Part shown: positions 8,992-59,050 of the stretch, piece by piece
Layout: each line of letters opens with the position of its first letter
Position numbering within the stretch: position 1 is the first letter of the stretch
Position numbers and translations under genes: made by a program
Origin: Lentisphaeria bacterium
GTDB lineage: Bacteria > Verrucomicrobiota > Lentisphaeria > JABSQK01 > JAWLHB01
NCBI GenBank assembly: GCA_041690595.1
Contig: JAWLHB010000042.1
Span: 1 to 64,000, forward strand
Length of the DNA stretch: 64,000 bases
Reading direction: 5' to 3'
Notes under the pieces: generated by a model
What the model was told of the DNA's origin: nothing
What the model saw: the letters and a program-made list of their open reading frames with translations, nothing else
Databases searched by the model: none

Positions 8992-11900
8992 ATGGATAAA
9001 TACCTGGATCTTTACCGCATTGTCAGTCTGAACCGGAAGCTGGACGACAAACAGGAAGCGCTTGCGCAATCGGGCAAGATACCTTTCTACATACCGACGG
9101 CCGGACATGAGACGAGTGCGGCCCTGGCTCCCCATCTGCGGCCCGATGACTATCTCTTCTGTCATTATCGTGACGTGGCGCTGATGCTGGCGCGTGGGTA
9201 CCTGCCGGAGAATCTGCTGGCGGGTGTGCTTGGCCGTGCCGGCAGTTCCTCGTCGGGGCGACGGATGCCAGGCTTCCCTTGCAGCCCCGAGCTGCGTATC
9301 ATGGATTCCTCGACCCTGGTGGGGAACAACGCGCTGCAGGCGGCCGGCATTGCCCATACCATCAAGACGCGCGAAGGGGATCAGTCGATCGTGCTTTGCA
9401 GCATCGGCGATGGCGGCACCCAGCAGGGTGAATACCTGGAAGCCATCGCGGAAGCGGTTCGCTGGCAGTTGCCCGTCCTCTTCTTTGTCCACAACAACAA
9501 TTACGCCCTTTCGGTACCGACGCCCGGCAAGACCTTCTTTTCCCGTGGCGATGGCTTGGCGCGGGAGTTCTACGGCATCGAGATCGTCCATCTGGAGGGC
9601 AGGAACATTCCCGCCGCGCATGAGCGTCTGGGGCAGGTTGTCGGCGAGATGCGCGAGCGGCGCCATCCGCGGATCGTGGTGCTCAATACGGAGCGCTTGC
9701 GCAGCCATACCTATGCGGATGACCACCGCGTCTATCGGGCCGAAGCCGACCTCAAGCGGCTGAGCGAGGAGATGGATCCGTTGCGCTGCTTCCGTCAGTA
9801 TCTGCTCGATTCCGGTGTTGCGGAGGCGACGCTGGCGGAGATCGAGCAGGCGGGGCAGAAGCAGATCGAGCTTGCGGCCACGACGGCCCTCGCCATGCCC
9901 GTTTCCAAGGGGAAGACGGAGATTCGTTGCCCGTATGTGCCTCTGCGTACCTGCCCGCCCGTCGGGAGTGCCGATGCCGAGCAACTGACCTTGCTGCAGA
10001 CCATTCGGCGGGTCCTGGCACATCGCCTGGAGCACGACGATCGGGTCGTCCTCTATGGTCAGGATATCGAAGATCCCAAGGGTGATGTCTTTGGTCTGAC
10101 GCGCGGCTTGAGCAAGGCGTACCCCGAACGTGTGCGCAATTCGCCCCTCAGCGAATCGACGATCATGGGCGTGGCCGCCGGTCGCGCCTTTGCGGGCGAT
10201 CGGCCCGTGGCCTTTCTGCAGTTTGCCGACTTTTTGCCGCTTGCCTACAACCAGATCCACTCGGAGCTGGGCAGCATCTATTGGCGCAGCAATGGCAATT
10301 TCGAGGCACCGGTGACCGTTCTGACGGTTTCGGGCGCCTACTGCAAGGGGTTGGGACCCTTCCATGCCCAGACTCCCGCCGCGGCGGTAGCCCATGTCCC
10401 CGGGGTGGATGTCTATGTCCCCGGCTGCGCGGCCGATGCGGCGGCGATACTGAACACCGCCATGTCCGGCAACCGTCCGTCGGTCATCCTGCTGCCGAAG
10501 GTGCTGCTCAACAGCCGCGCCCACATGGCGACCCTGCAGGATCTCAACGTGACGATCCGCCCCGGCGAAGCTCGTCGCGTACGTGAGGGCAGCGAGCTGA
10601 CCCTGGTCGGCTATGGCAGCACCATGCTGGTCTGCGAAGAGGCGGCCGACCACCTCGAGCGCGCGGGCATATCTGTCGAGCTGATCGACCTGCGCTGCAT
10701 TTCACCGTGGGACGAAGAGATGATCGTGGAATCCGTCTCGCGGACGGGCGCGCTGCTGATCGTCGACGAAGACAACAAGACCTGCGGTATTGCGGGCGAG
10801 ATCCTCGCCACCGTCGCGGAGCGCATCGACCGCAAGGTGAAGCTGGCGCGTGAGTGCCTGAACGATACTTTCATCCCCTTCGAGTTCGGCCGCCAGCTGG
10901 AGATTCTGCCCACCGTCGATACGGTTCTCGAACGTGTCGCCCGCATGCTCGACCTGCAGGTCGAGTGGGAAGAGGACGAGCAGGCCGCCGCCGGTACTCT
11001 CGTCGTGAAGACCGTCGGCTCCAGTCCGGCGGACGAGACCGTGACGATCATGGCTTACCATGTTGAAGTGGGAGACGTGGTCGAAGAGGACGATCTGCTC
11101 GCCACCGTCGAGGCCGACAAGGCCATCACCGAGATCACTGCCCCAACCGGCGGAACCGTCACCGCCATCTCCCTGGAAGTCGGCGACGAGGTCTCAATCG
11201 GGACGCCGATGCTGGTTCTGGCTACCGGTGTGGACGCCGAGGCCGGGCCGGTGGTGGAGACACCGTCGGAGCGACGCGTACACGCGATCACCCGGAAGAG
11301 CGCGGCGGGAGCGGCGACACGCGCATCCGCCAGTGGCAAGACGGATGTCTACCTCTCGGCCATTGCGGCGGTACCCGGTTCACGACTGGTGCTCAACGAG
11401 GAGTTGATCGAGCACAACCCGGTGTGGAGCGCGAGCGAGATCGAGAAGCGCACGGGGATCCGTCAACGCTACTGGGTTGGAGAGGGAGAGACGACGCTTT
11501 CATTGGCAGAGCGGGCGACGCGGGAAGTGCTGCGTATGCACGATCTGGCGATGGAAGATGTCGATGCCATCATCTGCAGTACCGGAACCGGCGGTCCCGT
11601 CAGTCCATCCATGGCTTGTCGTCTGCTCACGTCATTCGATCTGCCGGATTCCGTTGCGATTCAGGCGCATGACATCAATGCCGCCTGCAGCGGGTACCTG
11701 TATGCGCTTCAGCAGGCCTATGACATCCTGCAGTTTCAGGCGGACGCCGTGATCCTGATTGTGACCTCCGAGACCCTCTCGCAGGTCCTCGATCGCACCG
11801 ATCCGGGAACCTATTTCCTCTTCGGTGACGCGGCGACGGCCTCGCTGGTGACTGGTACGCCGCTGCCCGGCAGCAAGCGTCGCCTGAAGGTCTCCCGGCC

Positions 11901-12312
11901 GGTTCTGTCCTCCGGGGGCGACCCGAAGGAGGCGCTCTTTGTGCCGAACCTGAACATGCCGGAGTTCCTGCGCATGGATGGCCGTCCCGTTTTCCGGGTG
12001 GCGGTCAAGAACATGCTGCAGATGCTGCAGCGGGCCTGCAAGCAGAGCGAGCTGACGGTGGCCGATCTGGATCTGGTCATCCCGCACCAGGCGAATCAGC
12101 GCATCATCGAGGCGGTACAGAAGACAGCCAGCATGGCGCCGGAGCGCGTCTATTCCTGCATTGCCAACTATGGCAACACCTCCTCATCGAGCATTCCGCT
12201 TGCCCTGTCGGAGCTGGCGAAAGGCTCGGAGATGCGCGGTAAGCTCGGGCTGACGGCGTTTGGCGCCGGCTTCGCCTTCGGTGCGGCCCTGCTCGATGCG
12301 TCGGATCTGTAA
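8992..12312 (+). CDS. Fusion: TPP-dependent 2-oxoacid dehydrogenase E1alpha + E1beta + lipoyl domain + beta-ketoacyl-ACP synthase III (FabH)
   Basis: GDGGTQQG...HNNNYA TPP motif; E1beta YGQDI, PLSESTIMG, GPFHAQT, LIDLR; lipoyl VEADKA; KAS III triad NAACSGY, PHQAN, YGNTSSSSIP and GAGF. Confidence 0.92.
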   Translation: MDKYLDLYRIVSLNRKLDDKQEALAQSGKIPFYIPTAGHETSAALAPHLRPDDYLFCHYRDVALMLARGYLPENLLAGVLGRAGSSSSGRRMPGFPCSPELRIMDSSTLVGNNALQAAGIAHTIKTREGDQSIVLCSIGDGGTQQGEYLEAIAEAVRWQLPVLFFVHNNNYALSVPTPGKTFFSRGDGLAREFYGIEIVHLEGRNIPAAHERLGQVVGEMRERRHPRIVVLNTERLRSHTYADDHRVYRAEADLKRLSEEMDPLRCFRQYLLDSGVAEATLAEIEQAGQKQIELAATTALAMPVSKGKTEIRCPYVPLRTCPPVGSADAEQLTLLQTIRRVLAHRLEHDDRVVLYGQDIEDPKGDVFGLTRGLSKAYPERVRNSPLSESTIMGVAAGRAFAGDRPVAFLQFADFLPLAYNQIHSELGSIYWRSNGNFEAPVTVLTVSGAYCKGLGPFHAQTPAAAVAHVPGVDVYVPGCAADAAAILNTAMSGNRPSVILLPKVLLNSRAHMATLQDLNVTIRPGEARRVREGSELTLVGYGSTMLVCEEAADHLERAGISVELIDLRCISPWDEEMIVESVSRTGALLIVDEDNKTCGIAGEILATVAERIDRKVKLARECLNDTFIPFEFGRQLEILPTVDTVLERVARMLDLQVEWEEDEQAAAGTLVVKTVGSSPADETVTIMAYHVEVGDVVEEDDLLATVEADKAITEITAPTGGTVTAISLEVGDEVSIGTPMLVLATGVDAEAGPVVETPSERRVHAITRKSAAGAATRASASGKTDVYLSAIAAVPGSRLVLNEELIEHNPVWSASEIEKRTGIRQRYWVGEGETTLSLAERATREVLRMHDLAMEDVDAIICSTGTGGPVSPSMACRLLTSFDLPDSVAIQAHDINAACSGYLYALQQAYDILQFQADAVILIVTSETLSQVLDRTDPGTYFLFGDAATASLVTGTPLPGSKRRLKVSRPVLSSGGDPKEALFVPNLNMPEFLRMDGRPVFRVAVKNMLQMLQRACKQSELTVADLDLVIPHQANQRIIEAVQKTASMAPERVYSCIANYGNTSSSSIPLALSELAKGSEMRGKLGLTAFGAGFAFGAALLDASDL

Positions 12313-21666: not shown

Positions 21667-24600
21667 ATGAAGTTACGTCACGTGAACCTGTCGCTGCTCC
21701 TGCTTCTATTCTGTGGATGGTCTGCAACAGAGGGCGCCGAGCCGGTGCAGGAATTCACCTTGCGGGAACACTTGGGGCACAACTGGCGCCACGAGCTGGT
21801 GATGCTCCCACTCGATGCGGCGGCATCGGCGCAGGAGGCGCTGCGTCTGGTTGGCCCGGATGGTGAGGAGGTGCCCTGCCAGCGCGTGGATTCGGCTCTC
21901 GCCTTCATAGTCGATCTTCCCACCGATGCGGTGCAGCTCTATCGGCTCTTCGCGGAAGCGCCGACGCGTGCGACTCCCTTCGAGCGCGAAGAGAAGGAGG
22001 GCCGGCTCCGCACCTGGAACAGCTTGACAGGTATCGCCGTACCGACGACGCTCGAAACCGCTCTGCAGGGACCGATCCAGGGGCTGATGATGCAGTCGGG
22101 TGAATGGGTGGGCGCCAGTCAGCTGTCGCTCTCTGAGGAGGTTACGGCGTATCGTCTCGAGACGGTTGCTTCCGGCCCTGTCCTTGTCGAGCTTCTTTCT
22201 ACCTATACTCTCGCCAGCGGGGCCACCTGGCAGCTGCGCCACCGCCTGATCGCCGGCGAACCGGTTGTGCGCATCAGTGAAAGCTGGGCGCCGGTGCCGG
22301 GGGGACACTGGCGTCTGCTACTGCATCCCGAGCTGGAGCCGGACACGATTCTCTGGCGCAACAGCTCGCATCAACTCAAACCGCGAAATGGTATGCTCGC
22401 CCGGCGTCTGGACACCGGCAAGGCTTGGAAACCGGTGACGCTCTACCCCTGGCTCGCCTGGTGGGAAGAGGGTGCCGCCTCCTTTGTCAGTCTTTTTCGT
22501 GCCGGCGCTGGGATTACCTTCCTGGCTGAGGAGGAGGGGCTCAAACGTCTGGTCAAACCTCAGCCGCAGGCGCAGCCACGCCAGGATCCTCCGGCGCTGG
22601 ACGAAAAGCAGAGTCATTCCGCGGACGTGCTCTTCCTCGCGGTGGGGCAGGGGGCTGCCTGGGCCGAACCTGGACAGAATGGCATGCAGCACGCCCTGCC
22701 GCTGCGCACCAATGGCAAGGGAGAGACATGGATCGACCTCGCCTTTGCCGGCCCCGGTCGTGAATGGCTCCTCGGTGCCAGTACCTATGATGGTACCATC
22801 ATGCCCAACACGGAGCTCTCGGATGCGCAGCAGAGCCTGATCCGCCACTTGGAGACACCACTGCAGCAGCTCCTCGACATGACCCTCGCCTGGCCACAGG
22901 ATTTCGAGGCCGGCTCCTTTCCCCGCCTCTTTCTCGATCGCGGCGATATTGCCCGTGTCAAAGCCTTCTATGCCGACCAGCGCCCGGAGATCCAGGATCC
23001 GCGGCAGCGCCTGCTCTGGCAAGCTCTCGTGGACGAGGATACCAAGGCACGCGAGGAGGTGACCGCCAAGGCAATGCTGACGCCGTGGGTCTTCACCGGC
23101 CATGTCGAACATGGAGACCCCGCCGCCGGGACCGCGATTCGGCGTCCTTCGGCGAGCGCCTACAGTCATCACGTGACCATGGGGTTGATCCGCAACCTCA
23201 TCTGGGTGGATGCCGCGCTGGCCTGCGGACTGCTCGACGAACCGCAACGGCGCAAGCTGCAGGCTCGGCTCGCCTTCCTCGCCTACAAGCTGGGGAGCCC
23301 CGATTTCTATGACTTGTCCCGCAACTATCGCGCGAATCCGAACATGACGACGGCGCGGCATGCGGTGGTGGGACTTCTCGGTTGCCTGCTGAAGGATCAT
23401 CCGGAGAGCAAGGCGTGGAATGCGCTGGGCGAAGAGGAGATACGGCGTCAACTCGCGGAATGGGTGGGGCCGAATGGTGGCTGGCTGGAATGCCCCCACT
23501 ACCAGACCATCCTCGCGGATGCGCTCTGCTTCCTGCAGGCCGCCCATCGCATCGGCTATTCGGACCTGGCGCTGGACGAGCGTCTCCTGCGCACGATCAC
23601 CTATCTGGCGAAGATCTCGACACCACCCGATCCACGCTTTGCCAACCGCCGCCACTTTCCTGCCGCCGGCAATACCTATCGATTCGAGACGAGCATGATC
23701 TTCAGCGTGCTGGCCCACCTTCATCATGAGGTGACGCCCCAGGCAGCCAACGACCTTCAGTGGATCTGGCAGGAGCAGGGCAGCCCGATGTATATGGCCA
23801 TCGGCGGTGACAATGTCTACAACACCATCAGCGAATTCGCCGTTGCCCGCTTCGAACCAGATAAGCCGCCGAGTTGGGGGAGCGATGTCTTTCCCACCAC
23901 CGGTACCGTCATGCGCCATGGCTTTCCGGGAGACCGCGAATCGCAGCTCTACATCCTCCACGGCCCCTTCGATCAACACTACGACCATGATCGTGGCGCA
24001 CTCTCCTTCTGGGGGCTGGGCCAGCCGCTCATGCTCGACTGGGGGTATGATGGGCGCATGCCGGCCGACATGCATTCCATGATGGGTGGCGGCAACCGCG
24101 GAAAGGTCGACGCGCACGCCTTTCAGCCTCACCTGGACTACCTGAACCTCGATTTCGGAGCCTGGCGCCGCCAGATCCTCTTCAGCAAGCAGCCGTCGGA
24201 CGAGGCTCCGGTGATGGTGCTCGTGCGCGACACCACGGTTGCCGCTCGCCCGCTGCCGTGGAACGCGTGGTTCTATACCGAGGAGGCCATTCGCCGTGCC
24301 GAGGAGGGGCCGCTGCTTCACATGGTCGGACAGGCCGATGTCGATCTGGATCTCTGGTTCAGTGGAGAGTGGCGCGAGGCCTTCCCGCGCATGACGTGGC
24401 AGGAAGTGGAAAACGAGAAGCCGCCGGCTGCCCCGAAGGCGACCCTGAAGGAGGCGGACAATCTGGCTGCCGATGAGGCGGAGGATTTCCTCGCCGGCAC
24501 CGAGCCGCCACCGCCGCCCCATCTGCGCATGCGGGTTGAATCGGTAAGCGTGGTGGAAGGCTACGCCAATCGCCATGGCTGGAACTATGGCGGCATGCGG

Positions 24601-24933
24601 CAACGGGGTTTGAGCCTGACCGTGCCGCCCGGCAAACCGGTGGCCTGGCTTCTCTATCCGCGTCTGAAGCAAAGCAGCCCACCCAAGGTGACGGAGCTGG
24701 CGGACGGGCAGGCCGTGCGGGTCGAAACCAACGCCGGCACCGACCTGCTCATTCTCGCCACGGAGACGATTACCTTCACGGATGGCCCCTGTCGCTTTGC
24801 CGGTACCGCCGGCGCCGTGAAGATTCGCGGCAACTCCCTGCAGCTCACGCTTGCCGCACCCGGCAGCATCGCCTGGGAAGAGCATGAACTGAGTTCCGAC
24901 TCGCCTGCCACCCGGACGATCGAGCTGCGCTGA
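21667..24933 (+). CDS. Large secreted protein, heparinase II/III-like (polysaccharide lyase-like)
   Basis: Signal peptide; NPNM, GGWLECPHY and HYDHDRGALSFWGLGQPLMLDWGY resemble alginate lyase/Hepar_II_III motifs. Confidence 0.55.
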   Translation: MKLRHVNLSLLLLLFCGWSATEGAEPVQEFTLREHLGHNWRHELVMLPLDAAASAQEALRLVGPDGEEVPCQRVDSALAFIVDLPTDAVQLYRLFAEAPTRATPFEREEKEGRLRTWNSLTGIAVPTTLETALQGPIQGLMMQSGEWVGASQLSLSEEVTAYRLETVASGPVLVELLSTYTLASGATWQLRHRLIAGEPVVRISESWAPVPGGHWRLLLHPELEPDTILWRNSSHQLKPRNGMLARRLDTGKAWKPVTLYPWLAWWEEGAASFVSLFRAGAGITFLAEEEGLKRLVKPQPQAQPRQDPPALDEKQSHSADVLFLAVGQGAAWAEPGQNGMQHALPLRTNGKGETWIDLAFAGPGREWLLGASTYDGTIMPNTELSDAQQSLIRHLETPLQQLLDMTLAWPQDFEAGSFPRLFLDRGDIARVKAFYADQRPEIQDPRQRLLWQALVDEDTKAREEVTAKAMLTPWVFTGHVEHGDPAAGTAIRRPSASAYSHHVTMGLIRNLIWVDAALACGLLDEPQRRKLQARLAFLAYKLGSPDFYDLSRNYRANPNMTTARHAVVGLLGCLLKDHPESKAWNALGEEEIRRQLAEWVGPNGGWLECPHYQTILADALCFLQAAHRIGYSDLALDERLLRTITYLAKISTPPDPRFANRRHFPAAGNTYRFETSMIFSVLAHLHHEVTPQAANDLQWIWQEQGSPMYMAIGGDNVYNTISEFAVARFEPDKPPSWGSDVFPTTGTVMRHGFPGDRESQLYILHGPFDQHYDHDRGALSFWGLGQPLMLDWGYDGRMPADMHSMMGGGNRGKVDAHAFQPHLDYLNLDFGAWRRQILFSKQPSDEAPVMVLVRDTTVAARPLPWNAWFYTEEAIRRAEEGPLLHMVGQADVDLDLWFSGEWREAFPRMTWQEVENEKPPAAPKATLKEADNLAADEAEDFLAGTEPPPPPHLRMRVESVSVVEGYANRHGWNYGGMRQRGLSLTVPPGKPVAWLLYPRLKQSSPPKVTELADGQAVRVETNAGTDLLILATETITFTDGPCRFAGTAGAVKIRGNSLQLTLAAPGSIAWEEHELSSDSPATRTIELR

Positions 24934-24935
24934 GG

Positions 24936-27900
24936 TCAGTCCAACTCGTTGAGCAAGTCGTCGAGGACGGGATCGCTGGTGCCTTCGCCTGGCATGCGCA
25001 GGGCGCCGTCGGCCTTGCCGGTGAAGCGAAGATGACCCCACAGATGGGGGGCAAGCTGGGCTTCCGCGGCAATGTCGGAGAGAATGGCCGTGGCCTGATT
25101 GCTCCAGTAGTGCCGGCCGAGCACCTCCCGCCCCTCGTCTCCGGTTCGCAGGATGCCCCAGTCGAAGCGAAGCATCTGGTCGACAATCGGCCGGAGATTC
25201 AGCTCCGCCAGCGGAATCGCTGCTTCCACACGATAGCCATTCTCAGTCGGGACGACCGCCAGCTTGGCGGTGTCCAGCATGCGGACGCGACTGAAGACGG
25301 TCCGGAAGACCTGGGTCTCGAAGACCATGTCGTCTGCTTTATCAGCATCGGGAATCAAGGCTTCGTAGAGCACCGCCACCGGCTTCCCTTTGAGGCGGGT
25401 CATGAGGAGGCGGATGTCGCCGACACCCGCATGGCGCCGTTCCGGTGACGCAGACGGATTCGTGGCGAGTTGCAGATCGACTGCACCACCGGACTTGAAA
25501 AGGCGGCGCCAATCTTCGCCGCTGTTGGCCAGCGGCCCCATGCCGATCGTCTCGTAGAGCAGGTACAGATTCTTGTCGTCATGGGAGGCGCGGAAGGTGG
25601 CGTTGAAGTCGCGCGCGTCGCCATGCAGCGAAGTGGCGGGCACACCATCCCAGTCATCGGCTTCACCATCGACGCGCACCGCCCGCGGGGCTGCCGGGAC
25701 AATGGCCAGCCGGGCCCGTTCGTAAACGTCCCGAGCCTGCAGCTGCTGCTCCCAGGCCAGTGCCCGCTGGAGATCCTCCTCCGTCACCTCGAAGCTGCCC
25801 GTGAGCCGTTGAAAGCGATCCATGCCGTCGATGCGGAAGACATTGGTGGACATCCAGATGCCGTAGACATTACCGTCGGCCGTCTGAGTGACATCGCCCC
25901 AGAAGTGCTCTTGGCCGGCGGTGAGGTTGCGTAGCTCCATGCCGCGATCATGGGTATCCATGTTCCAGCGGCGGGCGTGAGGATGACGCAGATCGAGGAA
26001 GATGTTCCCGGCCAGCAAGCCATCGCCTGTCCAGATATGCCAGATGCCGGTGTTACTGGTGGTGATCAGGTGTTCCCCGAGACCACCCCTGGTCATGACA
26101 TCGCGGGCAACGATGCTGAATTCGGAGACCACCTGTTCCGGCGTGAGAGGTGAGGCTTTGTAGTAGGCGTGGACGCCGGTTCCCTCGGTGCGATAGCGCC
26201 AGAGAAGCTCCCCCTCCTCCGTATAGACGGCGGCTTCGCCGAAGGAGAAAAGGCGGTTGTCCGGCAGTTGATAGTATTGGCCCCGCGCGGGCAGCGGCAG
26301 TACCAGCTGCTCGTACACGGGAACCCCGCTGGGCAGGACCTCCCGTACGCGCCAGACCATGTTGTCGCCGGTGATGCCAAGTCGATCATCGAAGTTGGTG
26401 AGCGTCCGTACCTGCCGGGGCGAGAACTCGATCTCCTGGGGCTGCACGGCTCCATCGCCATCGAGGTCGGACCACAGGAACTGCAGGTTCGCCAGCGCTT
26501 CGGCGCCGATTTTGACAAGAACATCCGGCTTCTTGAGCGGGGGGAACTGATCCGCGGCCCCCATGGCAGCGGCGAGAATGGCCGTGCCGTCATCGTAGCG
26601 ATAGACAATGCCGACCGGCTGCATGAAGAAGCGGTCGCGGGTGACGAGGTATTTGCGCTCGCCCAGGTAGACGGGCTGCTCGCCGGCCGGCGCATCGCCG
26701 ATGGTGGTGAGATTGCGCAGAGCCGTGCGCCCACTCTCCCAGTTCAGCTCGAACTCCAGAGGGCCGTAGTAGAGGAGCGACTTGTCGCGCGGATCGAGTA
26801 CGCCCCCTCCGCCATAGATCGTCCGGTCGAAATGCTCCGCGACGAAGCTGCCGTCGAGGCGCCAGCGGCTCACCCGCTTGGGGAAATGCTGCTTCTCATT
26901 GACCCATAACTGACCGCTTTGGTCGATGGCCAGATCACTGACGCTTCCCATGCGGGTGGGATCCCAGCCACCGGCCTGGAAGCCGCCGGGGGTGCCGATG
27001 CTGCGCAGGTAGCTCCCTTCCGCGCTGTAGACTCGTACCGTTTGGCGTTCGGGGGCGCCGTCGAAGAGATAGAACTGGCCCGTTGCGTCTATGGCCAGTG
27101 CCTTGGGTGCGATCAGGTCGTCGATGACAACCACATGAGCGCCGTCGGCCAGATCGAGGCGCAGAACCCGGCTGCCCGAGAGCGCGAAAAGCTCGCCGCT
27201 TTCGGCGAAGGCCAGGTCGCTGGCGCCATCGAGAGGCATCTCCCCGACCATCTCGCGCTTCTGCCAGTCGAAGGTCTCCAGGCGCTCCGCGATCAGCGGA
27301 TCGACCGGGGGCTCTCCGCCAAGATGGCGAAGGGCGACAACACCATGGACTGCCGCGCGAGTCGGATCGAGGGTCATGCCGCCACGATCCTCACGGATGC
27401 CATAGAGCCCCTCGCGCCCTTGCGCACGCTCCGTCCACTGCGAAATGATGCGCAGGCGCACGGCACGCGTGGTGATGTCCCGCCCGAAATCGACATACTG
27501 GTCCAGGTACCGGGCATCGGCATTCATCTGCCGGCCGGGGTAGAAATAGCGGCGGGAAGGCTGGAGAGAGGCGACCTCCTCCCAGTTGGCGTCATCGGCA
27601 AGCTGGACGGGATCATCCGCGGTGCCGGTAAAGGAATCGACGCGTACCTCGCGTCCATCCACCTCCTTGATGGCGAGACCGCGCATGGTCTCGGGTGCAG
27701 TCCACTGCATCATGTAGACGGCGGGGGCTTCGGGCGAAATCGGCGTCTCCCGTTGCGCCAGCCAGCTGCCATCGGCCTCGACGGTACCGGAAGAGACGTC
27801 AATTGTGGGTGGTGGGCAGGGGGCATAGCGGCGCCGTAGGATCTTGAGCCCCTCCAGACGACCACTCCAGGCCTTGCGGGCGCTTTCTTCTTCGAGCCCT

Positions 27901-30065
27901 TCGAGAAGTCCTGCAAGCTCTTCGTCACCCCCTTGGTGAAAGGTGATGCGCAGCGCGCGAGTGGTCAGCCCTTCCGGCGCCGGGATGACTGTCCAGCCCT
28001 GGCCTTCACCGGTCGCGAAGCGCTGCCAGTGCTCCTCGTTTTCCGGATCGGGTGGGTAGGGGGCGTCATCCTTCATATAGCTGAACTGAAGGGCGGTGCG
28101 CGGCAGGTCGGGCACGGGCAGGACCAGGCTGCCTATGGGCACGGGGCGATTGCAGGCGAGCACGATATGCTGGCGCGGCTCCCGACCCCGGGTCGTCTCC
28201 AGCCACGTCAGGGCTCCATGCTGCCCCGGTGGCGTGCCGCGCAAGCGGAACAGGCGGACAAAATCGTCGGCCGGATCGTGCTCCTCTTCGTCGCGTTCCT
28301 CTGGGCGGGGATAGCGGGGCCAGGAATTGGCCAGGTCCACATCCCCATCGCTGAAGGCATTGACCAGCCAGCTGTTGGCGTCGCTCTTGACGGCCAGGTA
28401 GAGCTTCTCGCCACGCGCCTCGATTCCCTTGATCCCGCTCCGACGACTGGCGCTGCCGGCACGTGTCAGTATTTCGTTCACCTCCCGTGACGCCAGATCG
28501 ATCTGCCAGATATGATCGGTGCCGTCGCGGAAGGCATGGACGAAGAGCTGCTCCTCGGCGGCGGCCATGCGAGTGGGGCCGGTCCATGCCATGAAGTTGT
28601 GGTGCCCCCAGAGTTTCCGCCCCCGCAGGTCCGCTTCCAGCAGAGCGACGCCCCCTTCCGCGACCTCGGATCCGATGTAGATGCGATCGCCGTAAGCCAG
28701 GACGGCGGCGGATGGGGTATGATCGGCCAGCCAGCCGCCAGTGCCGTTATGTCCCGTCAGCCACGGCGCATTCTCGGGCGAGTGATCGCCGATGTTCGGA
28801 AAAGGGGTCATCTCGTAGTGCAGCGTGAGACCGGGATGCCAGATCCCCCGCCACTGGTAGGTGCCGGGGGCAACGTAGCGGCCATCGTCATCCTTCAGGT
28901 TCCAGGGTTCGGCATTCTCACCGCCATCGCGTTCACGGCGTGCCAGCAGATTTCGCCGAGGTTTACCATCTGGGCCATCGATGACCATTGTGAAAATACC
29001 TTTCTCCGGGAGCGCGTAGGCAAGGCGGAATGGCGGCTTGTCTTGGGAAGGGGGTGTCAGGTCGGGCACTGGGGCATCTCCGAGAGATCGCAGTGCCTGG
29101 AGGCTGGTGATGGTGGCAACTGCTCCTCCAGCGGTGCGGGTAATGAGCACGCGCAGCGCGCGCGTGCGAATTGTCTCCTCGAAGTTGAAGGTAAGGCGCT
29201 GACCTTCCCGGTCATAGGCCTGACGCTTTGGCTCGATGCGGAGTGTACGCCACTCCTTGCCGGTGGCAATGGCGGGATTGAGATTGGCAGGCCCCACGAA
29301 GTGCTGAACGGCCACCTCCTGTCCATTGCCTTCGACGAGGAGCGCATCCAGCTCCTGCTCATCCGGCCAGGAGAGCACGATCCAGCTCGGGGCCACATCG
29401 CTGATCAGCGCCCGATGCAGGATCTTTCCCGTTTTGGGGTCCGGCCCCACATTCTGCCAGTGTAGCTTGCCGGTCACCAGATTGGCGGCAGAGAGCGTAA
29501 AGGGGGCGCTCATGCGAGGCTCGACACGATACTCGCTGTCGGCATTCGCCACCGCCAGCGGCGCCAGGTTAGCCAGTCGCTGCCGGTAAGCGGCGAGGAA
29601 GGGTTCCGTCGGTCGCCCCCCTTTGGAAACGATCATGTCCAGGGAAATCGCCGTCACCATGGTTCGCGGAGGCAGTGGCAGGGTCGGCGTGGTCTGATTG
29701 GGCGGCACGTCCGGAGTCACCCACCGCGGCTCTCCCGCCGGCAGATAGCGCACGGTAGCTCCGGCCACGCGCATGGAGCCGATTGCCAGCGGTCGCGTGA
29801 AGTGTAGTTGGAGGCTGTATCGATAATCGGGCGCCATGCCCGGCCGATTGTGCATGGCGATGCGCCAGGCACGCAACGGCCCGTACTCGCGTGGCCACCC
29901 CAGGATCTCGCGAACGACATCCGCGGGTAGCGGCTCCTCTCCCCCGTCGGCTATCAGGAGGCACTCCTCCCAAGCCATGCTCTCCGGCACGATTGCCGGG
30001 GTGACAACGTCGCGCGCCATGACGCCCGCGGCGAGGAGAAATACGAGGGGAAGGAGTCGAAACAT
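24936..30065 (-). CDS. 1709-aa secreted multidomain protein (discoidin-like repeats, FlgD-Ig-like, NHL-like propeller, CBM9-like C-terminus)
   Basis: Signal peptide; WNLKDDDGRYVAPGTY; GWLADH; LRSIGTPGG; VDGEADDW...DDKNLYL...YRVEAAIPLAEL. Confidence 0.7.
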   Translation of the reverse strand: MFRLLPLVFLLAAGVMARDVVTPAIVPESMAWEECLLIADGGEEPLPADVVREILGWPREYGPLRAWRIAMHNRPGMAPDYRYSLQLHFTRPLAIGSMRVAGATVRYLPAGEPRWVTPDVPPNQTTPTLPLPPRTMVTAISLDMIVSKGGRPTEPFLAAYRQRLANLAPLAVANADSEYRVEPRMSAPFTLSAANLVTGKLHWQNVGPDPKTGKILHRALISDVAPSWIVLSWPDEQELDALLVEGNGQEVAVQHFVGPANLNPAIATGKEWRTLRIEPKRQAYDREGQRLTFNFEETIRTRALRVLITRTAGGAVATITSLQALRSLGDAPVPDLTPPSQDKPPFRLAYALPEKGIFTMVIDGPDGKPRRNLLARRERDGGENAEPWNLKDDDGRYVAPGTYQWRGIWHPGLTLHYEMTPFPNIGDHSPENAPWLTGHNGTGGWLADHTPSAAVLAYGDRIYIGSEVAEGGVALLEADLRGRKLWGHHNFMAWTGPTRMAAAEEQLFVHAFRDGTDHIWQIDLASREVNEILTRAGSASRRSGIKGIEARGEKLYLAVKSDANSWLVNAFSDGDVDLANSWPRYPRPEERDEEEHDPADDFVRLFRLRGTPPGQHGALTWLETTRGREPRQHIVLACNRPVPIGSLVLPVPDLPRTALQFSYMKDDAPYPPDPENEEHWQRFATGEGQGWTVIPAPEGLTTRALRITFHQGGDEELAGLLEGLEEESARKAWSGRLEGLKILRRRYAPCPPPTIDVSSGTVEADGSWLAQRETPISPEAPAVYMMQWTAPETMRGLAIKEVDGREVRVDSFTGTADDPVQLADDANWEEVASLQPSRRYFYPGRQMNADARYLDQYVDFGRDITTRAVRLRIISQWTERAQGREGLYGIREDRGGMTLDPTRAAVHGVVALRHLGGEPPVDPLIAERLETFDWQKREMVGEMPLDGASDLAFAESGELFALSGSRVLRLDLADGAHVVVIDDLIAPKALAIDATGQFYLFDGAPERQTVRVYSAEGSYLRSIGTPGGFQAGGWDPTRMGSVSDLAIDQSGQLWVNEKQHFPKRVSRWRLDGSFVAEHFDRTIYGGGGVLDPRDKSLLYYGPLEFELNWESGRTALRNLTTIGDAPAGEQPVYLGERKYLVTRDRFFMQPVGIVYRYDDGTAILAAAMGAADQFPPLKKPDVLVKIGAEALANLQFLWSDLDGDGAVQPQEIEFSPRQVRTLTNFDDRLGITGDNMVWRVREVLPSGVPVYEQLVLPLPARGQYYQLPDNRLFSFGEAAVYTEEGELLWRYRTEGTGVHAYYKASPLTPEQVVSEFSIVARDVMTRGGLGEHLITTSNTGIWHIWTGDGLLAGNIFLDLRHPHARRWNMDTHDRGMELRNLTAGQEHFWGDVTQTADGNVYGIWMSTNVFRIDGMDRFQRLTGSFEVTEEDLQRALAWEQQLQARDVYERARLAIVPAAPRAVRVDGEADDWDGVPATSLHGDARDFNATFRASHDDKNLYLLYETIGMGPLANSGEDWRRLFKSGGAVDLQLATNPSASPERRHAGVGDIRLLMTRLKGKPVAVLYEALIPDADKADDMVFETQVFRTVFSRVRMLDTAKLAVVPTENGYRVEAAIPLAELNLRPIVDQMLRFDWGILRTGDEGREVLGRHYWSNQATAILSDIAAEAQLAPHLWGHLRFTGKADGALRMPGEGTSDPVLDDLLNELD

Positions 30066-52858: not shown

Positions 52859-55333
52859 TCAGACGCCGCTGGCGGAACGGCGGAGCATTTCGCCGCAGGT
52901 CTGGGCCGTGCCGGACTGATGACCTTCGAGCGGCAGGATGCGCTCGTTGATGATGTCGAGGAACCACCCAGTCTGCGGGAAGAAGGCTTCTTCCATCTCC
53001 GCGGGAGGGGTGATCCAGTTGCGGGCGCCAAGCACAGCGATGGGCGCATCGAGGTAATCGAAGGCGAGCTGGCCGATGTTGCTGGCGATGTTGTGGAGGA
53101 AGGAGCCGCGGTCGCAGGCATCGCTGCTGAGCAGCAGGCGGCCCGTCTTCTTGACAGATTCGACGATCTTCTCGAGCTTGAGCGGGACGATGAAGCGGGC
53201 GTCGATCACTTCCGCGCTGACGCCGTGCTTCTGCTGGAGGATCTCGGCCGCTTCCATGGCACGATAGAGCGTCGCGCCGACGGTGACGATGGTGATGTCG
53301 TCGCCCTGTCGCCGGATGGCAGGTTCGCCTTCCTCGATCTCGTAGTAGCCTTCCGGCACGCCGCCCTCAACGAATTCCTCGCCGATGTCATAGACCCGCT
53401 GGCTTTCGAAGAAGATGACGGGATCCGTGCCGCGCAGCGCAAGGTTGAGCATGCCCTTGGCGTCGTACGGGGTGACGGGGAAGTAGGCCTTGAGGCCGGG
53501 GATGTGACTGACGATGCTGCTCCAGTCCTGCGAATGCTGAGCGCCGTACTTGCTGCCGACGGAGACGCGCAGGACAGCGGGCATCTTGAGGACGTTGGCG
53601 GACATGCTCTGCCACTTGGAGAGCTGATTGAAGACTTCGTCGCCGGAGCGGCCAAGGAAGTCGCAGTACATGAGTTCGGCGACGACCCGCCCGCCGCAAA
53701 GAGCATAGCCGACTGCCGCGCCGGCGATGGCCCCTTCGGAGATGGGCGAGTTGAAGAGGCGATGGTAGGGGAGCGCCTCGGTCAAGCCGCGGTAGACGGC
53801 GAAGGCGCCGCCCCAGTCGCGATTCTCCTCGCCGAATGCGACCATGGTGGGATCTTCGTAGTAGCGATGCAGCATGGCCTCGAAGAGGGCGTCGCGAAGG
53901 GCGATGACGCGGGCCTTGGGCAGCGCCTTTCCCTGCTCGTCAAAGGCGGAACGCGACTTGCGCTCGTTGGACTTGACGCGGGGATTCTCTTCCTTTGGCA
54001 GGAGCACTTCGGGCTCACGGTCATCGAGCTTGTCGGCGCGGCCGTTGGAGAACATCATGGCGCCGATGGCATCGCTGCGGGAGGCATCGAGGCGCGGAGA
54101 GATTTCCAGCGAACTGGCGAGTCGGTGGGCGCGGGTGACGTAGTCGACGATGCACTCCTGGGTTGCCTTGATGGTGGATTCATCCGTCCACTTGTTGGCG
54201 AGCATGTACTCGCTGAAGGACTTGATGCCGTCGGCTTCTTCCCAGAGGGCAATCTCTTCCTTGGTGCGATAGCTGGAGGCATCGGAGGGCGAGTGGCCGC
54301 TGATACGATAGGTGATGGTGTCGAGGAGGATCGGCCCCTTGCCGGCGAGGGCAAGCTTCTTCTTGCGATTGATGGCGTCAGCAACGGCGAGGGGATTGTA
54401 GCCATCGACGCGCTCGGCGTGCATCTGGTCGGGGTTGACTCCGGCACCGATGCGGGCGAGGGCACCGAAGCCCATGGTTTCGCCTTCGGGCTGACCACCC
54501 ATGCCGTAGAAGTTGTTGATGAACTGGAAGATGATGGGCGGGGCGCCGCCGACTTCCTTGTCCCACATGTGGGTGTACTGATCCATGGCGGCAAAGCAGA
54601 TGGCTTCCCAGACCGGACCGCAGGCGCTGGAGGCATCGCCGATATTGGCGAGGACCACGCCCGGCTTGCGATTGACGCGCTTGAAGAGGGCGGCGCCGAC
54701 CGCAATGTCGGCCGAGCCGCCGACGATGGCGTTGTTGGGCATGCTGCCGAAGGGGGCGAAGAAGGCGTGCATGGAGCCGCCCATGCCGCGGTTGAAGCCG
54801 GCATCGCGCCCGTAGATCTCGGCGAGGGTGCCATAGAGCACGAAGTCGATGGCGAGCTCCTTGATGGAGACGTTGTCGCCTTTGCGCGCCTTCTCGACGA
54901 TGCGCAGCTGAGCGCCATCCATGTAGCTCTCCATGACCTTCTGGACGGCCGCGTCATCGAGCTTTTCAATGGCCGAGAGGCATTTGGCGAGGATCTCGCC
55001 ATGGCTGCGGTGGGAGCCGAAGATGAAGTCGTTGACGTCGAGGTGCATGCAGGCGCCGACGGCGGTGGGTTCCTGCCCGATGGAGAGATGCGCCGGCCCC
55101 TTGTGGTCGTATTCGATGCCGTTGTAGGCTCCCTGCGTCTTGATGGTGTGGAGCATGGTCTCGAACTCACGAATGACCATCATGTCGTGCAGGGCCCGGA
55201 ACAACCCGTCCTTTCCGTAGCTCTTGAGTTCGGCTTTGGCGTCCGGCTTGTAGATGTTGACGGGGATGTCCTTGAACGAGATACTGCCGCTCTGGCGGAC
55301 TTTCTTCGGATCGACGACGACTGACTTAGGCAT
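52859..55333 (-). CDS. Fused E1alpha/E1beta TPP-dependent dehydrogenase (acetoin/2-oxoacid dehydrogenase family)
   Basis: HLSIGQE, HRSHG, GGSMH, IGDAS...NNFYGM, GHSPSD, GEEN, PISE, YGAQHSQ. Confidence 0.92.
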
Positions 55334-55387: not shown

Positions 55388-56728
55388 TCAGTGCATTTCC
55401 CAGATGGCGTCGCGCACGACTTCGCCAATGGTGGGGTGGGGGAAGACGATGTCGCGGATATCGCGCACGCGCAGTTCGGCCTCGATCATGGCGGCGGCGC
55501 CATAGACGATCTCGGAGCAGACGGAGCCGATCATGTGCACGCCGAGGAGCACTTGCGTTTCGGCATCGACGAGGACCTTGCAGAAGCCGGGAGCGCGGCT
55601 GTCGTTCTCAGCGAGAAAACGGCCGTTGACCTTCATGGGCAACTTGCTGACGGTGACCTTGCGGCCGGCCTGCAGTGCCTGCCCTTCGGTCATGCCGACT
55701 CCGGCCACTTCGGGATGCGTATAGACGACCCACGGAATGGCATGGTAGCGCATGCGGTCGGCCTGGCCGAACATGACCTTGACGGCGACTTCGCCCATGC
55801 GCGAGGCGGTGTGGGCGAGTTGCATCATGCCGGTGACGTCACCGACGGCATAGATCCCCGGGATATTGGTGCGCATCTGCTCGTCGATGGTGATGCCGCG
55901 GCGGCTGGTGGCGATGCCCAGATTCTCCAGGCCGATCCCCTTTACGTTGGGATAGCGCCCGACGCTCATGAGGACCATGTCGGCATCGATCGCCTGCGCC
56001 TTGCCATCCTTCTCGACGTGGACCTGCTTGTCGTCGATACGGACTACTTTGGCGCCGAGCTCGAACGTGACGGAGGCGAGGGACTTCCGCAGGGTCTGGG
56101 CGATATCCTCGTCGAAGTTGGGGATGATCTCGGGAAGCATCTCGATGACGGTGACGTCGATGCCGAGATCGCTGGCGAAGCTGGCGAACTCCATGCCGAT
56201 GACCCCACCGCCGATGACGGCCAGGCGGCGGGGGAGGCTCTCGATCTGGAGCATTTCGCGGCTGGTGAGGACGTGAGGCAGATCACTCCCCGGGATGGGG
56301 ATGCGGATGGCGGTCGAACCGGTCGCGATGAGGATGTTGGCGGCTTCGTAAACGGTCTCGCCAACGCGTACTTTACCGCGTTCGATCAGCTCGCCAGCGC
56401 CCTCGATGACGTCGATCTTGTAGCGCTTCATCTGGTAGGCGATACCACTGCGCAGAGACTTGATGATCTTCTCCTTGCGCTTCATGACCGTGGGCAGATC
56501 GAAGCGGACGCCCTCGCAGGTGACGCCGAATTCGGCGCCGTGCAGAGCCTGCGCATAGTGCTTGCTGGAGTTGAGCAGGGTCTTGGAGGGGATGCAGCCT
56601 TCGTTGAGGCAGACGCCGCCGAGGTGCGACTTCTCGATGATGGCGACTTTCTTGCCCATGGCGCCGGCACGCTCGGCAGCGACATAGCCGCCGGGTCCGG
56701 CTCCGAGGACGATAAGATCGTATGACAT
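55388..56728 (-). CDS. lpdA: Dihydrolipoyl dehydrogenase (E3)
   Basis: GAGPGGY, GGVCLNEGCIPSK, GGGVIG, HPTIGE. Confidence 0.96.
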   Translation of the reverse strand: MSYDLIVLGAGPGGYVAAERAGAMGKKVAIIEKSHLGGVCLNEGCIPSKTLLNSSKHYAQALHGAEFGVTCEGVRFDLPTVMKRKEKIIKSLRSGIAYQMKRYKIDVIEGAGELIERGKVRVGETVYEAANILIATGSTAIRIPIPGSDLPHVLTSREMLQIESLPRRLAVIGGGVIGMEFASFASDLGIDVTVIEMLPEIIPNFDEDIAQTLRKSLASVTFELGAKVVRIDDKQVHVEKDGKAQAIDADMVLMSVGRYPNVKGIGLENLGIATSRRGITIDEQMRTNIPGIYAVGDVTGMMQLAHTASRMGEVAVKVMFGQADRMRYHAIPWVVYTHPEVAGVGMTEGQALQAGRKVTVSKLPMKVNGRFLAENDSRAPGFCKVLVDAETQVLLGVHMIGSVCSEIVYGAAAMIEAELRVRDIRDIVFPHPTIGEVVRDAIWEMH

Positions 56729-56767: not shown

Positions 56768-58129
56768 TCAGCCGGCGAGGAGCAGGTCGATGTTGGCAAG
56801 TGCCTCAGCGACGCGCTGGAGGAAGCGGGCGGCGGGAGCGCCATCCACAACCTGGTGATCGATGGTGATGGAGAGGCCCATGAACTGCCGGTGGACGATC
56901 TCGCTGCCTTGCTGGACAGGCTTCAGTTGGGTGCTGCCGATGCCGAGAATGCCGACCTGGGGCGGGTTGAGCACGGGGGTGAAGCTCTCGATACCGAGGT
57001 TGCCGAGGTTGCTGATGGTGAAGGTGCCGCCGCTGAGTTCATCGGGCGTGATTCCACCTTCGGTGCAGGCGCGGGCCACCCGCTTGGCTTCGGCGGAGAG
57101 CTGCTTCAGCGTGAGTTTGTCCGCGTGGCGGATGACGGGGACCATGAGTCCGCGGGGCGTGTCCACGGCAAAGGCGAGGTGGACGCTCTTGTACTGATGG
57201 AGGGCGTTGTCTTGGTAGAGCGCGTTCATTTCAGGAGAATCCTTGAGGACGCGGGCGACCGCAAAGAGGATCAGATCGTTCACGGTGACCTTCTGCAGGG
57301 CGAACGATTCGGGGCTGTTCTTGAGCTTCTTTCGCAGGGCGAGGAGGCTGGTGGCGTCAGCGGAGCTGTTCATGGTGAGCTGCGCCGTCTTCTGCAGGGA
57401 CGCGTGCATGCGCTCGGCGATGAGCTTCCGTATGCCCTTGATCGGCACCTTGACGATCTCGTCTTCCTGAGAAGCGGCGGCGGGGGCCGCGGGCTGGACC
57501 GGAGCCGCGCTTTTCATGTCAGCGGCCGTGACGCGGCCGCCAATGCCGGAACCGGCGGCGGGTGCGACCTTGCCCGCGGCGGCAAGCTCTCTTGCGGCGG
57601 GGGTGAGGGGCTGTCCGGAAGCCAGGGCCTGCTGGACATCACGCTCGATGACGCGTCCCTGCGGGCCGGTGCCGGTGAGGCCGGTCAGGGCAATGCCCTT
57701 CTCCGCGGCGAGTTTCCGGGCGCGGGGCGATACCCGTTCGGGTTTCTGGCCGGCGGGGGCGGCCTGGGGCTCGGGAATGAGGTCAGCGGCAGCGACGGGT
57801 GCCGGCGCGGCTTCGGCCACTGTTTCCACTTCTGGAGCGGCGGCTGCTGGAGCGGCGGCTTCACCGGGACGGAACTCGTCAGTCGCTTCGCCCGGATTGC
57901 CGATGACCGCCATGTTGACGAGAACGGGCACGTCGTCGCCTTCTTCGAAGAAGCGGGCAATAAGGGTGCCGGCGGCAGGAGCTTCGACTTCGAAGGTCGC
58001 CTTGTCGGTTTCGACTTCGCAGAGGATGTCGCCTTCCGCGACGGAGTCACCGATCGCCTTTTTCCAGGTGAGGATGAGGCAGGTTTCGACGCTTTGACCT
58101 TGCTTTGGCATCAATACGGGTGTGGCCAT
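56768..58129 (-). CDS. Dihydrolipoamide acyltransferase (E2)
   Basis: Lipoyl ETDKA, E3-binding SPRARKLA/GTGPQGR, catalytic DHQVVDGA. Confidence 0.95.
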   Translation of the reverse strand: MATPVLMPKQGQSVETCLILTWKKAIGDSVAEGDILCEVETDKATFEVEAPAAGTLIARFFEEGDDVPVLVNMAVIGNPGEATDEFRPGEAAAPAAAAPEVETVAEAAPAPVAAADLIPEPQAAPAGQKPERVSPRARKLAAEKGIALTGLTGTGPQGRVIERDVQQALASGQPLTPAARELAAAGKVAPAAGSGIGGRVTAADMKSAAPVQPAAPAAASQEDEIVKVPIKGIRKLIAERMHASLQKTAQLTMNSSADATSLLALRKKLKNSPESFALQKVTVNDLILFAVARVLKDSPEMNALYQDNALHQYKSVHLAFAVDTPRGLMVPVIRHADKLTLKQLSAEAKRVARACTEGGITPDELSGGTFTISNLGNLGIESFTPVLNPPQVGILGIGSTQLKPVQQGSEIVHRQFMGLSITIDHQVVDGAPAARFLQRVAEALANIDLLLAG

Positions 58130-58938: not shown

Positions 58939-59050
58939 CTGATCACTATGCATGATCGGATGAGCAGATGCAAGCGCAAATGAAGATTTATTCTGCTCGT
59001 TTATGATCGATGCGAGCGCGAAGCTCGATCACTGATCGCTCTTCCCCCAA

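Follow-up and report, generated by a model that had tools for sequence, protein, structure and literature searches.

Where does an acyl group go when the enzyme that makes it from a 2-oxoacid is joined, in one polypeptide, to an enzyme that starts fatty-acid chains? This question is raised by a gene in positions 1 to 64,000 of contig JAWLHB010000042.1 of a Lentisphaeria bacterium (assembly GCA_041690595.1), a 64,000-nucleotide stretch that is called the window below. One open reading frame (ORF) of 1106 codons (8992-12312, + strand), with an ATG start and no internal stop, encodes the E1alpha and E1beta parts of a 2-oxoacid dehydrogenase, a lipoyl domain, and a FabH-type beta-ketoacyl-ACP synthase III domain (KAS III; ACP, acyl carrier protein). 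A preliminary description made from the sequence had proposed that this protein passes the acyl group from its own lipoyl arm to the FabH cysteine, bypassing acyl-coenzyme A (acyl-CoA). On balance we lean slightly towards this reading, in which the fusion would be a self-contained primer synthase whose lipoyl arm hands the acyl group straight to the KAS III cysteine, so that fatty-acid chains are probably started directly from a 2-oxoacid without acyl-CoA.

Domain order, reality and spread of the fusion

The Pfam matches (Table 1) place in one chain the three families of an alpha/beta (heterotetramer)-type E1 (E1_dh, Transket_pyr and Transketolase_C), although the alpha and beta parts are not separate subunits here, followed by Biotin_lipoyl and the KAS III families ACP_syn_III and ACP_syn_III_C. 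The thiamine diphosphate motif is GDG139-141 followed by NNN168-170. Two histidines, H239 (SHTYADD) and H458 (FHAQT), are invariant in an alignment of 120 homologues and may correspond to the alpha and beta histidines that serve the reductive acylation of lipoyl in E1 enzymes. Of the features of an E2 acyltransferase, the chain has a lipoyl domain with a DKA motif, but neither the E3-binding domain (E3_binding, PF02817) nor the catalytic core (2-oxoacid_dh, PF00198) was detected (Pfam, E <= 0.01). A biotinyl domain in place of the lipoyl domain was ruled out by the DKA motif, which marks lipoyl rather than biotinyl domains, and by the best matches, which are to E2 lipoyl domains. The lipoyl-lysine, K710, is at least 90% conserved in 35 diverse representatives. 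The KAS III domain passes the NCBIfam model PRK09352 (beta-ketoacyl-ACP synthase 3) over residues 788-1102, with 250.8 bits against a cut-off of 249.

The ORF and the Pfam matches bear out the four-part 1106-aa chain as it was first described, and the residues singled out at that time (GDG139-141 with the following NN, Lys710, and Cys899/His1032/Asn1062) are all present; the GDG, N169, K710 and the Cys-His-Asn triad are invariant in the 120 homologues. In an AlphaFold2 model of the fusion the domains are confident (mean predicted local distance difference test, pLDDT, 87.8), and the pLDDT is less than 50 at residues 750-759 and 771-781. A complex prediction for the lipoyl domain and a pair of KAS III domains, run without controls, gave a score of 0.00 and has no bearing either way.

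A search of a 5.8-billion-protein collection gave 1532 matches, and the best 120 of them, which form the homologue set used throughout, are 1071-1151 aa long and 46-52% identical to the window's protein, all with the same six Pfam domains. Their sources include Kiritimatiella glycovorans, Pontiella desulfatans and Pontiella sulfatireligans. When residues 660-1106 (lipoyl plus KAS III) were compared with 1.84 billion cluster representatives, 652 matches below 1e-30 were obtained, among them dozens of full-length clusters (50% identity) of 1087-1207 aa. A scan of species-representative genomes found 80 loci, most of them full-length and some in isolate genomes and chromosome-level assemblies, in Planctomycetota (Pirellulaceae and others), Verrucomicrobiota, Spirochaetota, Devosia, Rhodocyclaceae, Nitrospirales, Syntrophobacteraceae, Actinomycetota and four Rhizobium species (rhizogenes, lusitanum, freirei and leucaenae). 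The search for this domain architecture and its phyletic spread that the preliminary description had suggested therefore returned the same domains in the best 120 homologues and loci across several phyla. Because full-length homologues with the same domains occur in many genomes, isolates included, the fusion is real, and an assembly or frameshift artefact is excluded without recourse to reads. Of the sequencing runs listed as containing the sequence, none is of RNA. Four metagenome runs gave low-depth 151-nt contigs, 90-99% alike, in 7 to 18 of 30 bins, none of them spanning the gene; single read pieces bridge the E1beta end and the lipoyl domain (10881-11031) and the lipoyl domain and the linker (11111-11312) without indels, a coverage too thin to count as support.

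Within the phylum, 25 of 300 other genomes had a full-length match and 2 more had one split over contig ends; all 27 carriers fall in the 201 genomes of other classes, and no fusion was found in the 99 genomes of the window's own class in this sample. The resulting picture of the window's genome as the sole carrier of its lineage had to be corrected with a closer sample, in which the fusion was found in 4 of the 14 additional members of the window's order (40-48% identity) and in none of 16 further genomes of its class. The distribution is patchy, and transfer between lineages is likely on this pattern.

Active site and coenzyme A contacts of the KAS III domain

The last 335 residues of the 120 homologues were aligned with Escherichia coli K-12 FabH and with six stand-alone FabH proteins, one from the window's genome and five from carrier genomes; E. 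coli numbering is used below. It was found that the catalytic triad (C112, H244 and N274) is kept in 120 of 120 fusions and in the six stand-alone proteins, as are the pantetheine contacts R36 and N247 and an arginine, R249 (Arg1037 in the window's protein), which is the ACP docking arginine of E. coli FabH. The nucleotide end of the site is different. In E. coli FabH, Thr28 forms a hydrogen bond with the adenine of CoA, Trp32 and Arg151 stack on either side of it, and Arg36 and two asparagines hold the pantetheine (excerpts of PMC4606726). Position 28 is Trp in 120/120 fusions (Trp812 in the window's protein); position 32 is never Trp (Ala in 84, Asp in 24, Gly in 7, Glu in 2, Tyr in 2 and one other; Glu816 here); and position 151 is never Arg (Gln in 65, Pro in 46, Ala in 6, Leu in 2 and Thr in 1; Pro938 here). 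In contrast, all six stand-alone FabH proteins have Thr, Trp and Arg, respectively. Thus the acyl-CoA primer site (Thr28/Trp32/Arg151) is not found in the fusion KAS III, whereas the Cys-His-Asn triad is. Because the adenine contacts are replaced and the triad and pantetheine contacts are kept, the domain looks like a functional condensing enzyme that would admit a pantetheine arm, a requirement for the use of malonyl-ACP, and would no longer grip the nucleotide end of CoA.

The same relation between the lipoyl domain and the adenine contacts was found in a wider library. A KAS match of sufficient length for alignment was present in 126 of the 149 library representatives, and the other 23 were left out. 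In the 61 with a detectable lipoyl domain, W32 was kept in none and R151 in three, and the triad was present in 61; where no lipoyl domain was detected (65 representatives), W32 and R151 were each kept in 42, and several of the rest resemble N-terminally truncated fusion fragments.

The acyl channel also differs: position 87 is Thr in 119 fusions and Ser871 in the window's protein, and Phe in the six stand-alone FabH proteins. The acyl channel is blocked by Phe87 in E. coli FabH and opened by a Thr at the equivalent position in the mycobacterial enzyme; in BioZ, the residues at the F87 and G306 positions are among those that set primer size (PMC12625853, in the part available). The window's KAS III has Ala at the G306 position, which is Gly in 117 of the 120 fusions.

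E2-core relatives, split forms and gene neighbourhoods

The best matches in the phylum that lack KAS III are open frames of 1010-1140 aa that align to residues 5-770 of the fusion with 33-37% identity. Two of these (1015-1076 aa), L027 (1097-4144, - strand) and L028 (1306-4536, + strand), have E1_dh, Transket_pyr, Transketolase_C, Biotin_lipoyl and the E2 core 2-oxoacid_dh in one chain, with no E3-binding domain detected (Pfam, E <= 1e-5). With nine further chains (L120-L128), which were classed by a length of >1000 aa and an E1 match rather than by a family scan, they span 1014-1129 aa and come from several families of the phylum. Judged from these alignments, KAS III is at the E2-core position of homologous single chains. 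We know of no description of single-chain proteins of the E1alpha-E1beta-lipoyl-E2-core type, an all-in-one arrangement that may be undescribed in its own right.

In 54 rows (the plain E1alpha-beta L133 was dropped at extraction), a tree of the E1 region (IQ-TREE quick search, LG+G4, SH-aLRT) groups the 34 KAS fusions together (support 99) and the 11 chains taken as E2-core fusions together (support 100). These two groups cluster with one unfused E1alpha-beta (support 99), apart from eight ordinary fused E1alpha-beta proteins, one of which is the fused E1alpha-beta of the window's conventional set. The clustering unfused E1alpha-beta adjoins an ORF that was taken for an E2 by its lipoyl-like N-terminus rather than by a family scan. 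The branching order among the three lineages is unresolved in this tree, and so it cannot be said which architecture came first. The window's protein has a long branch (0.72) and a best identity of 53%; its place is within a well-supported group that also contains proteins from Kiritimatiellia, K. glycovorans and Pontiella, and two of the three copies from its own order that are in the tree fall in a different subgroup.

The same replacement is seen in a split form. The 511-aa protein P0210 has Biotin_lipoyl, E3_binding, ACP_syn_III and ACP_syn_III_C (Pfam), and by its domains it is an E2 whose core has been replaced by KAS III. In all three metagenome loci scanned, a fused E1alpha-beta gene is followed on the same strand, after 12-17 nt, by a gene of this type (Table 1), and the ORFs of a fourth metagenome locus are arranged alike. 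When parts are fused in one lineage and encoded close together in another, this is a classic sign that they work together. The E2-core chains and this split lipoyl-E3_binding-KAS III form substantiate the remark in the preliminary description that FabH sits where the E2 core normally follows the lipoyl domain. At locus L141, an amidohydrolase-family gene overlaps the 3' end of the two-gene form.

A longer form also exists. The library representative P0139 (1942 aa) has E1alpha-E1beta-lipoyl-KAS III followed by a ketoreductase (KR) domain (1337-1518), a phosphopantetheine-binding domain (1625-1683) and about 260 more, unassigned residues, and it looks like a polyketide-like module that would be loaded from a 2-oxoacid. 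A KR and a carrier domain after KAS III would be expected if the KAS III condenses onto a carrier protein.

In the window, the fusion gene is preceded by divergent sucD/sucC genes and followed by a convergent FGE-sulfatase-type gene, and neither an E2-type acyltransferase domain nor a dedicated ACP gene was found in or beside it. The earlier statement that no E2 or E3 gene is adjacent thus holds for the immediate neighbours but not for the window, which contains a conventional E2-E3-E1 set 40-45 kb away with a DeoR-type regulator gene upstream. The ORFs around 9 Kiritimatiella-type carrier genes (52 ORFs) and 10 carrier genes of other phyla (29 ORFs) were also scanned, and no E2, E3, ACP or fab gene recurs beside the fusion in these 19 loci; this absence of conserved neighbours fits a self-contained enzyme. 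At L032, one LplA/LipB-type gene lies two genes from the fusion. In two Rhizobium strains, R. rhizogenes NBRC 13257 and R. freirei PRF 81, the ornithine lipid hydroxylase gene olsE is located upstream of the fusion on the same strand, at a distance of about 230-270 nt, a hint that the fusion may be connected with the remodelling of membrane lipids in this lineage. Elsewhere in the window, three long ORFs, 481-2385 (+, 634 aa), 21667-24933 (+, 1088 aa) and 24936-30065 (-, 1709 aa), have no Pfam family (E <= 0.001).

Table 1. Positions of the fusion gene and its parts in the window, of other window genes, and of related genes at other loci.
Feature	Position	Strand	Evidence or remark
Whole gene, single-chain E1alpha-E1beta-lipoyl-KAS III, 1106 aa plus stop	8992..12312	+	ORF, Pfam, NCBIfam, 120 full-length homologues
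E1alpha part, E1_dh residues 9-303 (3.3e-40)	9016..9900	+	Pfam
Thiamine diphosphate motif GDG139-141...N168-170 within E1alpha part	9406-9501	+	G139, D140, G141, N169 invariant in 120-homologue alignment
E1beta part, Transket_pyr 333-507 and Transketolase_C 525-626	9988..10869	+	Pfam
Lipoyl domain, about residues 669-745; Biotin_lipoyl 682-743 (2.5e-15)	10996..11226	+	Pfam
Lipoyl-lysine Lys710, DKA motif	codon 11119-11121	+	Invariant in 120 sequences
Linker of about 40 residues, lipoyl domain to KAS III, predicted flexible	11227..11346	+	AlphaFold2
KAS III (FabH-type) domain, residues 786-1106	11347..12309	+	ACP_syn_III 894-956, ACP_syn_III_C 1016-1101
Cys899	11686-11688	+	Aligns with E. coli FabH C112
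His1032	12085-12087	+	Aligns with E. coli FabH H244
Asn1062	12175-12177	+	Aligns with E. coli FabH N274
Fused E1alpha-beta, 824 aa, E1alpha match starting only near residue 166	52859-55333	-	Same window
Dihydrolipoyl dehydrogenase (E3)	55388-56728	-	TIGR01350, 494 bits
Conventional E2	56768-58129	-	Same window
DeoR-type regulator gene	58135-58953		Window, upstream of E2-E3-E1 set
Two-gene form, E1alpha-beta (657-659 aa) then lipoyl-(E3_binding)-KAS III (511-537 aa)	L141:1575-5096, L144:3009-6551, L145:1188-4798		
olsE (ornithine lipid hydroxylase)	L065:1714-2712 and L084:1629-2753		NF052566, 566-568 bits

Proposed mechanism, rival explanations and substrate

We infer the chemical steps, the substrate and the fate of the product. 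The fused E1alpha-beta with thiamine diphosphate would decarboxylate a short 2-oxoacid and reductively acylate K710 of the lipoyl domain in the same chain. A short link joins the arm to E1beta, and the low-confidence linker of about 40 residues joins it to KAS III; on this tether the arm would then reach KAS III, and the acyl group would move to Cys899 by thioester exchange, whereas in an ordinary complex the E2 core would hand it to CoA at this point. KAS III would use His1032 and Asn1062 to condense the acyl group with malonyl-ACP, and the resulting beta-ketoacyl-ACP would enter type II fatty-acid or related lipid synthesis. Finally, a dihydrolipoyl dehydrogenase encoded elsewhere would re-oxidise the reduced arm in trans, for which the window's own E3 is a candidate. 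The window's genome encodes LipA and two LplA/LipB-type proteins. The hand-off from lipoyl to cysteine is proposed because the CoA adenine site is lost, because E2 core and KAS III exchange places in homologous chains, and because a split two-gene form exists.

Several observations weigh against this reading. In the window's genome, three E2 cores, an E3 and a stand-alone FabH whose CoA site is complete are encoded, so that the check proposed in the preliminary description, whether the genome lacks a branched-chain E2 or a stand-alone fabH, came out negative. E2 cores and an E3 were found in 6/6 genomes tested (the window's and five Kiritimatiella-type carriers), and a stand-alone FabH in 11/11 (these six and five carriers of other phyla, namely a Pirellulaceae, two Spirochaetia, a Nitrospirales and Rhizobium rhizogenes); in genomes G023 and G278 the stand-alone FabH is flanked by plsX-like and fabD-like ORFs, as judged by eye from the ORF ends rather than by a family search. 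Because the carriers keep these enzymes, nothing forces a bypass of CoA, and conventional enzymes could supply isobutyryl-CoA in the cultured strains. R36 and N247, which contact the pantetheine, remain in all fusions, and it is possible from the sequence that acyl-CoA binds without an adenine clamp or that acyl-ACP is the primer. The domain misses the stricter fabH model TIGR00747 (212 bits against a cut-off of 292), the stand-alone lipoyl-KAS III lineage (P0207 and P0210) keeps R151 and has Tyr at position 32, and the lack of a detected E3-binding domain in the fusion leaves the re-oxidation of the arm unexplained in detail. To our knowledge, Rhizobium, Pirellulaceae and other planctomycetes, and other carrier taxa have no bulk iso-branched fatty acids, and because the fusion occurs in such taxa, its substrate and purpose may differ between lineages. 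The fusion as a replacement of FabH or E2 was rejected, since the carriers tested for each of them keep it; from the gene content of these genomes it would be an additional initiator. The original interpretation is supported in part, by the conserved architecture, by the KAS III domain in the E2-core place and by the loss of the adenine contacts with the triad kept; what does not fit it is that the genome keeps E2 and FabH. The window's genome also encodes a 694-aa tandem KAS III-like protein (G000:C54:25164-26435) with two ACP_syn_III_C matches (36.7 and 40.9 bits).

The retained E2 cores and E3, together with the pantetheine contacts, would also suit a protein in which the parts are merely co-localised, the E1 and lipoyl domain serving in trans an E2 of its own gene, and the KAS III of the fusion taking acyl-CoA or acyl-ACP from solution. 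We consider this unlikely, since the three adenine contacts are replaced in every fusion yet kept in the stand-alone FabH of the same genomes, neither the window nor any of the 19 carrier loci has an E2 gene next to the fusion, and the KAS III of the split form itself bears the lipoyl and E3-binding domains of an E2, which is hard to square with a mere consumer of acyl-CoA. Very unlikely, in our estimate, is a KAS III that serves as an acyltransferase, moving the acyl group from the lipoyl arm to holo-ACP or CoA, with condensation left to another synthase. Some KAS III-like proteins of natural-product pathways do act as acyltransferases, and KAS III is found exactly where the homologues have their acyltransferase core; however, the Cys-His-Asn triad, whose His-Asn pair decarboxylates malonyl-ACP in KAS III, is invariant in 120/120 family members and 61/61 lipoyl-bearing representatives, and the KAS III cut-off of PRK09352 is passed. 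A point in favour of an acyltransferase is that the lipoyl arm of the QncN/QncL/QncM system gives its C2 unit to an ACP (PMC6335953, excerpts).

The chemistry could also be as proposed, with the product priming a specialised lipid or polyketide-like metabolite and the 2-oxoacid not being branched-chain. This is suggested by the housekeeping FabH in 11/11 carriers, by P0139 with its KR and carrier domains, by the position of the fusion after olsE in both Rhizobium loci scanned, and by the occurrence of the family in taxa that are not known for iso-branched fatty acids. It is nevertheless improbable, because neither in the window nor in any of the 19 carrier loci is the fusion gene surrounded by a biosynthetic cluster, and because the cultured Kiritimatiella and Pontiella strains have iso-even acids as major components of their membranes (PMC5148204 and PMC7356697, available parts).

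Returning to the lipoyl-to-cysteine primer synthase, there are some indications of its substrate. Iso-even fatty acids derive from an isobutyryl primer (valine, 2-oxoisovalerate), whereas the usual branched-chain 2-oxoacid dehydrogenase (Bkd) plus FabH route also yields iso-odd and anteiso acids. The major fatty acids of three cultured carriers are given as i-C14:0, i-C18:0, i-C12:0, i-C16:0 and C18:0, and K. glycovorans has neither odd-numbered acids nor anteiso-C15:0 (PMC5148204 and PMC7356697). This iso-even-only pattern points to an isobutyryl primer alone, and such selectivity would be accounted for by a primer synthase dedicated to 2-oxoisovalerate. Among solved E1 chains, those of the Thermus branched-chain 2-oxoacid dehydrogenase (1um9; beta 188.7 bits, alpha 108.7 bits) are the closest, with human branched-chain 2-oxoacid dehydrogenase (1dtw) and 1w85 as other relatives and pyruvate enzymes scoring slightly lower, a mild lean towards a branched-chain substrate as far as sequence likeness goes. 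The fatty acids of the three related cultured carriers thus suggest 2-oxoisovalerate, by correlation only, and for the Kiritimatiella-like clade we divide our expectation about equally between 2-oxoisovalerate, giving an isobutyryl primer, and pyruvate or another short 2-oxoacid.

Among known systems, the Bkd or pyruvate dehydrogenase plus FabH route of Bacillus and Staphylococcus, in which Bkd feeds FabH via acyl-CoA (PMC10026030, excerpts), shares with the fusion an alpha/beta thiamine diphosphate E1, a lipoyl-lysine arm, a Cys-His-Asn KAS III and, likely, malonyl-ACP as extender. The fusion differs in that a single chain unites the parts, neither an E2 core nor an E3-binding domain was detected, and the KAS III lacks the CoA adenine residues, so that the acyl-CoA intermediate is probably skipped. 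The single-chain E2-core proteins have the same domain order up to the lipoyl domain and the same branch of the E1 tree, but end in an acyl-CoA-making 2-oxoacid_dh core instead of KAS III. In QncN/QncL/QncM (quinocarcin) and the homologous SclQ1-4, a thiamine diphosphate enzyme loads a lipoyl domain and the unit enters a carrier-protein pathway without CoA, which is the nearest described precedent for such feeding; unlike the fusion, the QncN/QncL/QncM system has a ketose phosphate donor, an E2-type acyltransferase to a dedicated ACP, and no fused condensing enzyme in the account available to us (PMC6335953). The actinobacterial 'two-in-one' 2-oxoglutarate dehydrogenase OdhA likewise joins E1 and the next catalytic step in one polypeptide, but with an E2 succinyltransferase and a homodimeric-type E1, and it makes succinyl-CoA and borrows lipoyl domains from another E2 (PMC10415282, excerpts). 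No description of an E1-lipoyl-KAS III architecture was found in the literature searched, which did not extend to subscription journals and supplements, and PMC8204192 does not treat it. We know of no start of type II fatty-acid synthesis beyond acyl-CoA via FabH, malonyl-ACP decarboxylation, or FabB (PMC8666670, PMC10869286).

For a broader statement we see an even chance: that these proteins form a widespread, so far unstudied enzyme class, CoA-free '2-oxoacid:malonyl-ACP primer synthases', in which a protein-bound lipoyl arm rather than CoA or ACP delivers the primer to a ketosynthase; that the class arose from KAS III replacing an E2 core and exists as a four-part fusion, a split operon and the loading end of a KR-ACP megasynthase; and that it sets the iso-even-only membrane fatty acids of Kiritimatiella-type bacteria. 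If true, the hand-off from lipoyl to ketosynthase would add a new mode of loading for condensing enzymes, would connect 2-oxoacid metabolism with lipid synthesis independently of the CoA pool, and would explain how some bacteria choose a single primer. A compact, self-contained protein of this kind would be attractive for engineering branched or unusual chain starters, and the cultured, tractable carriers (Rhizobium species, Kiritimatiella and Pontiella) put the question within direct experimental reach.

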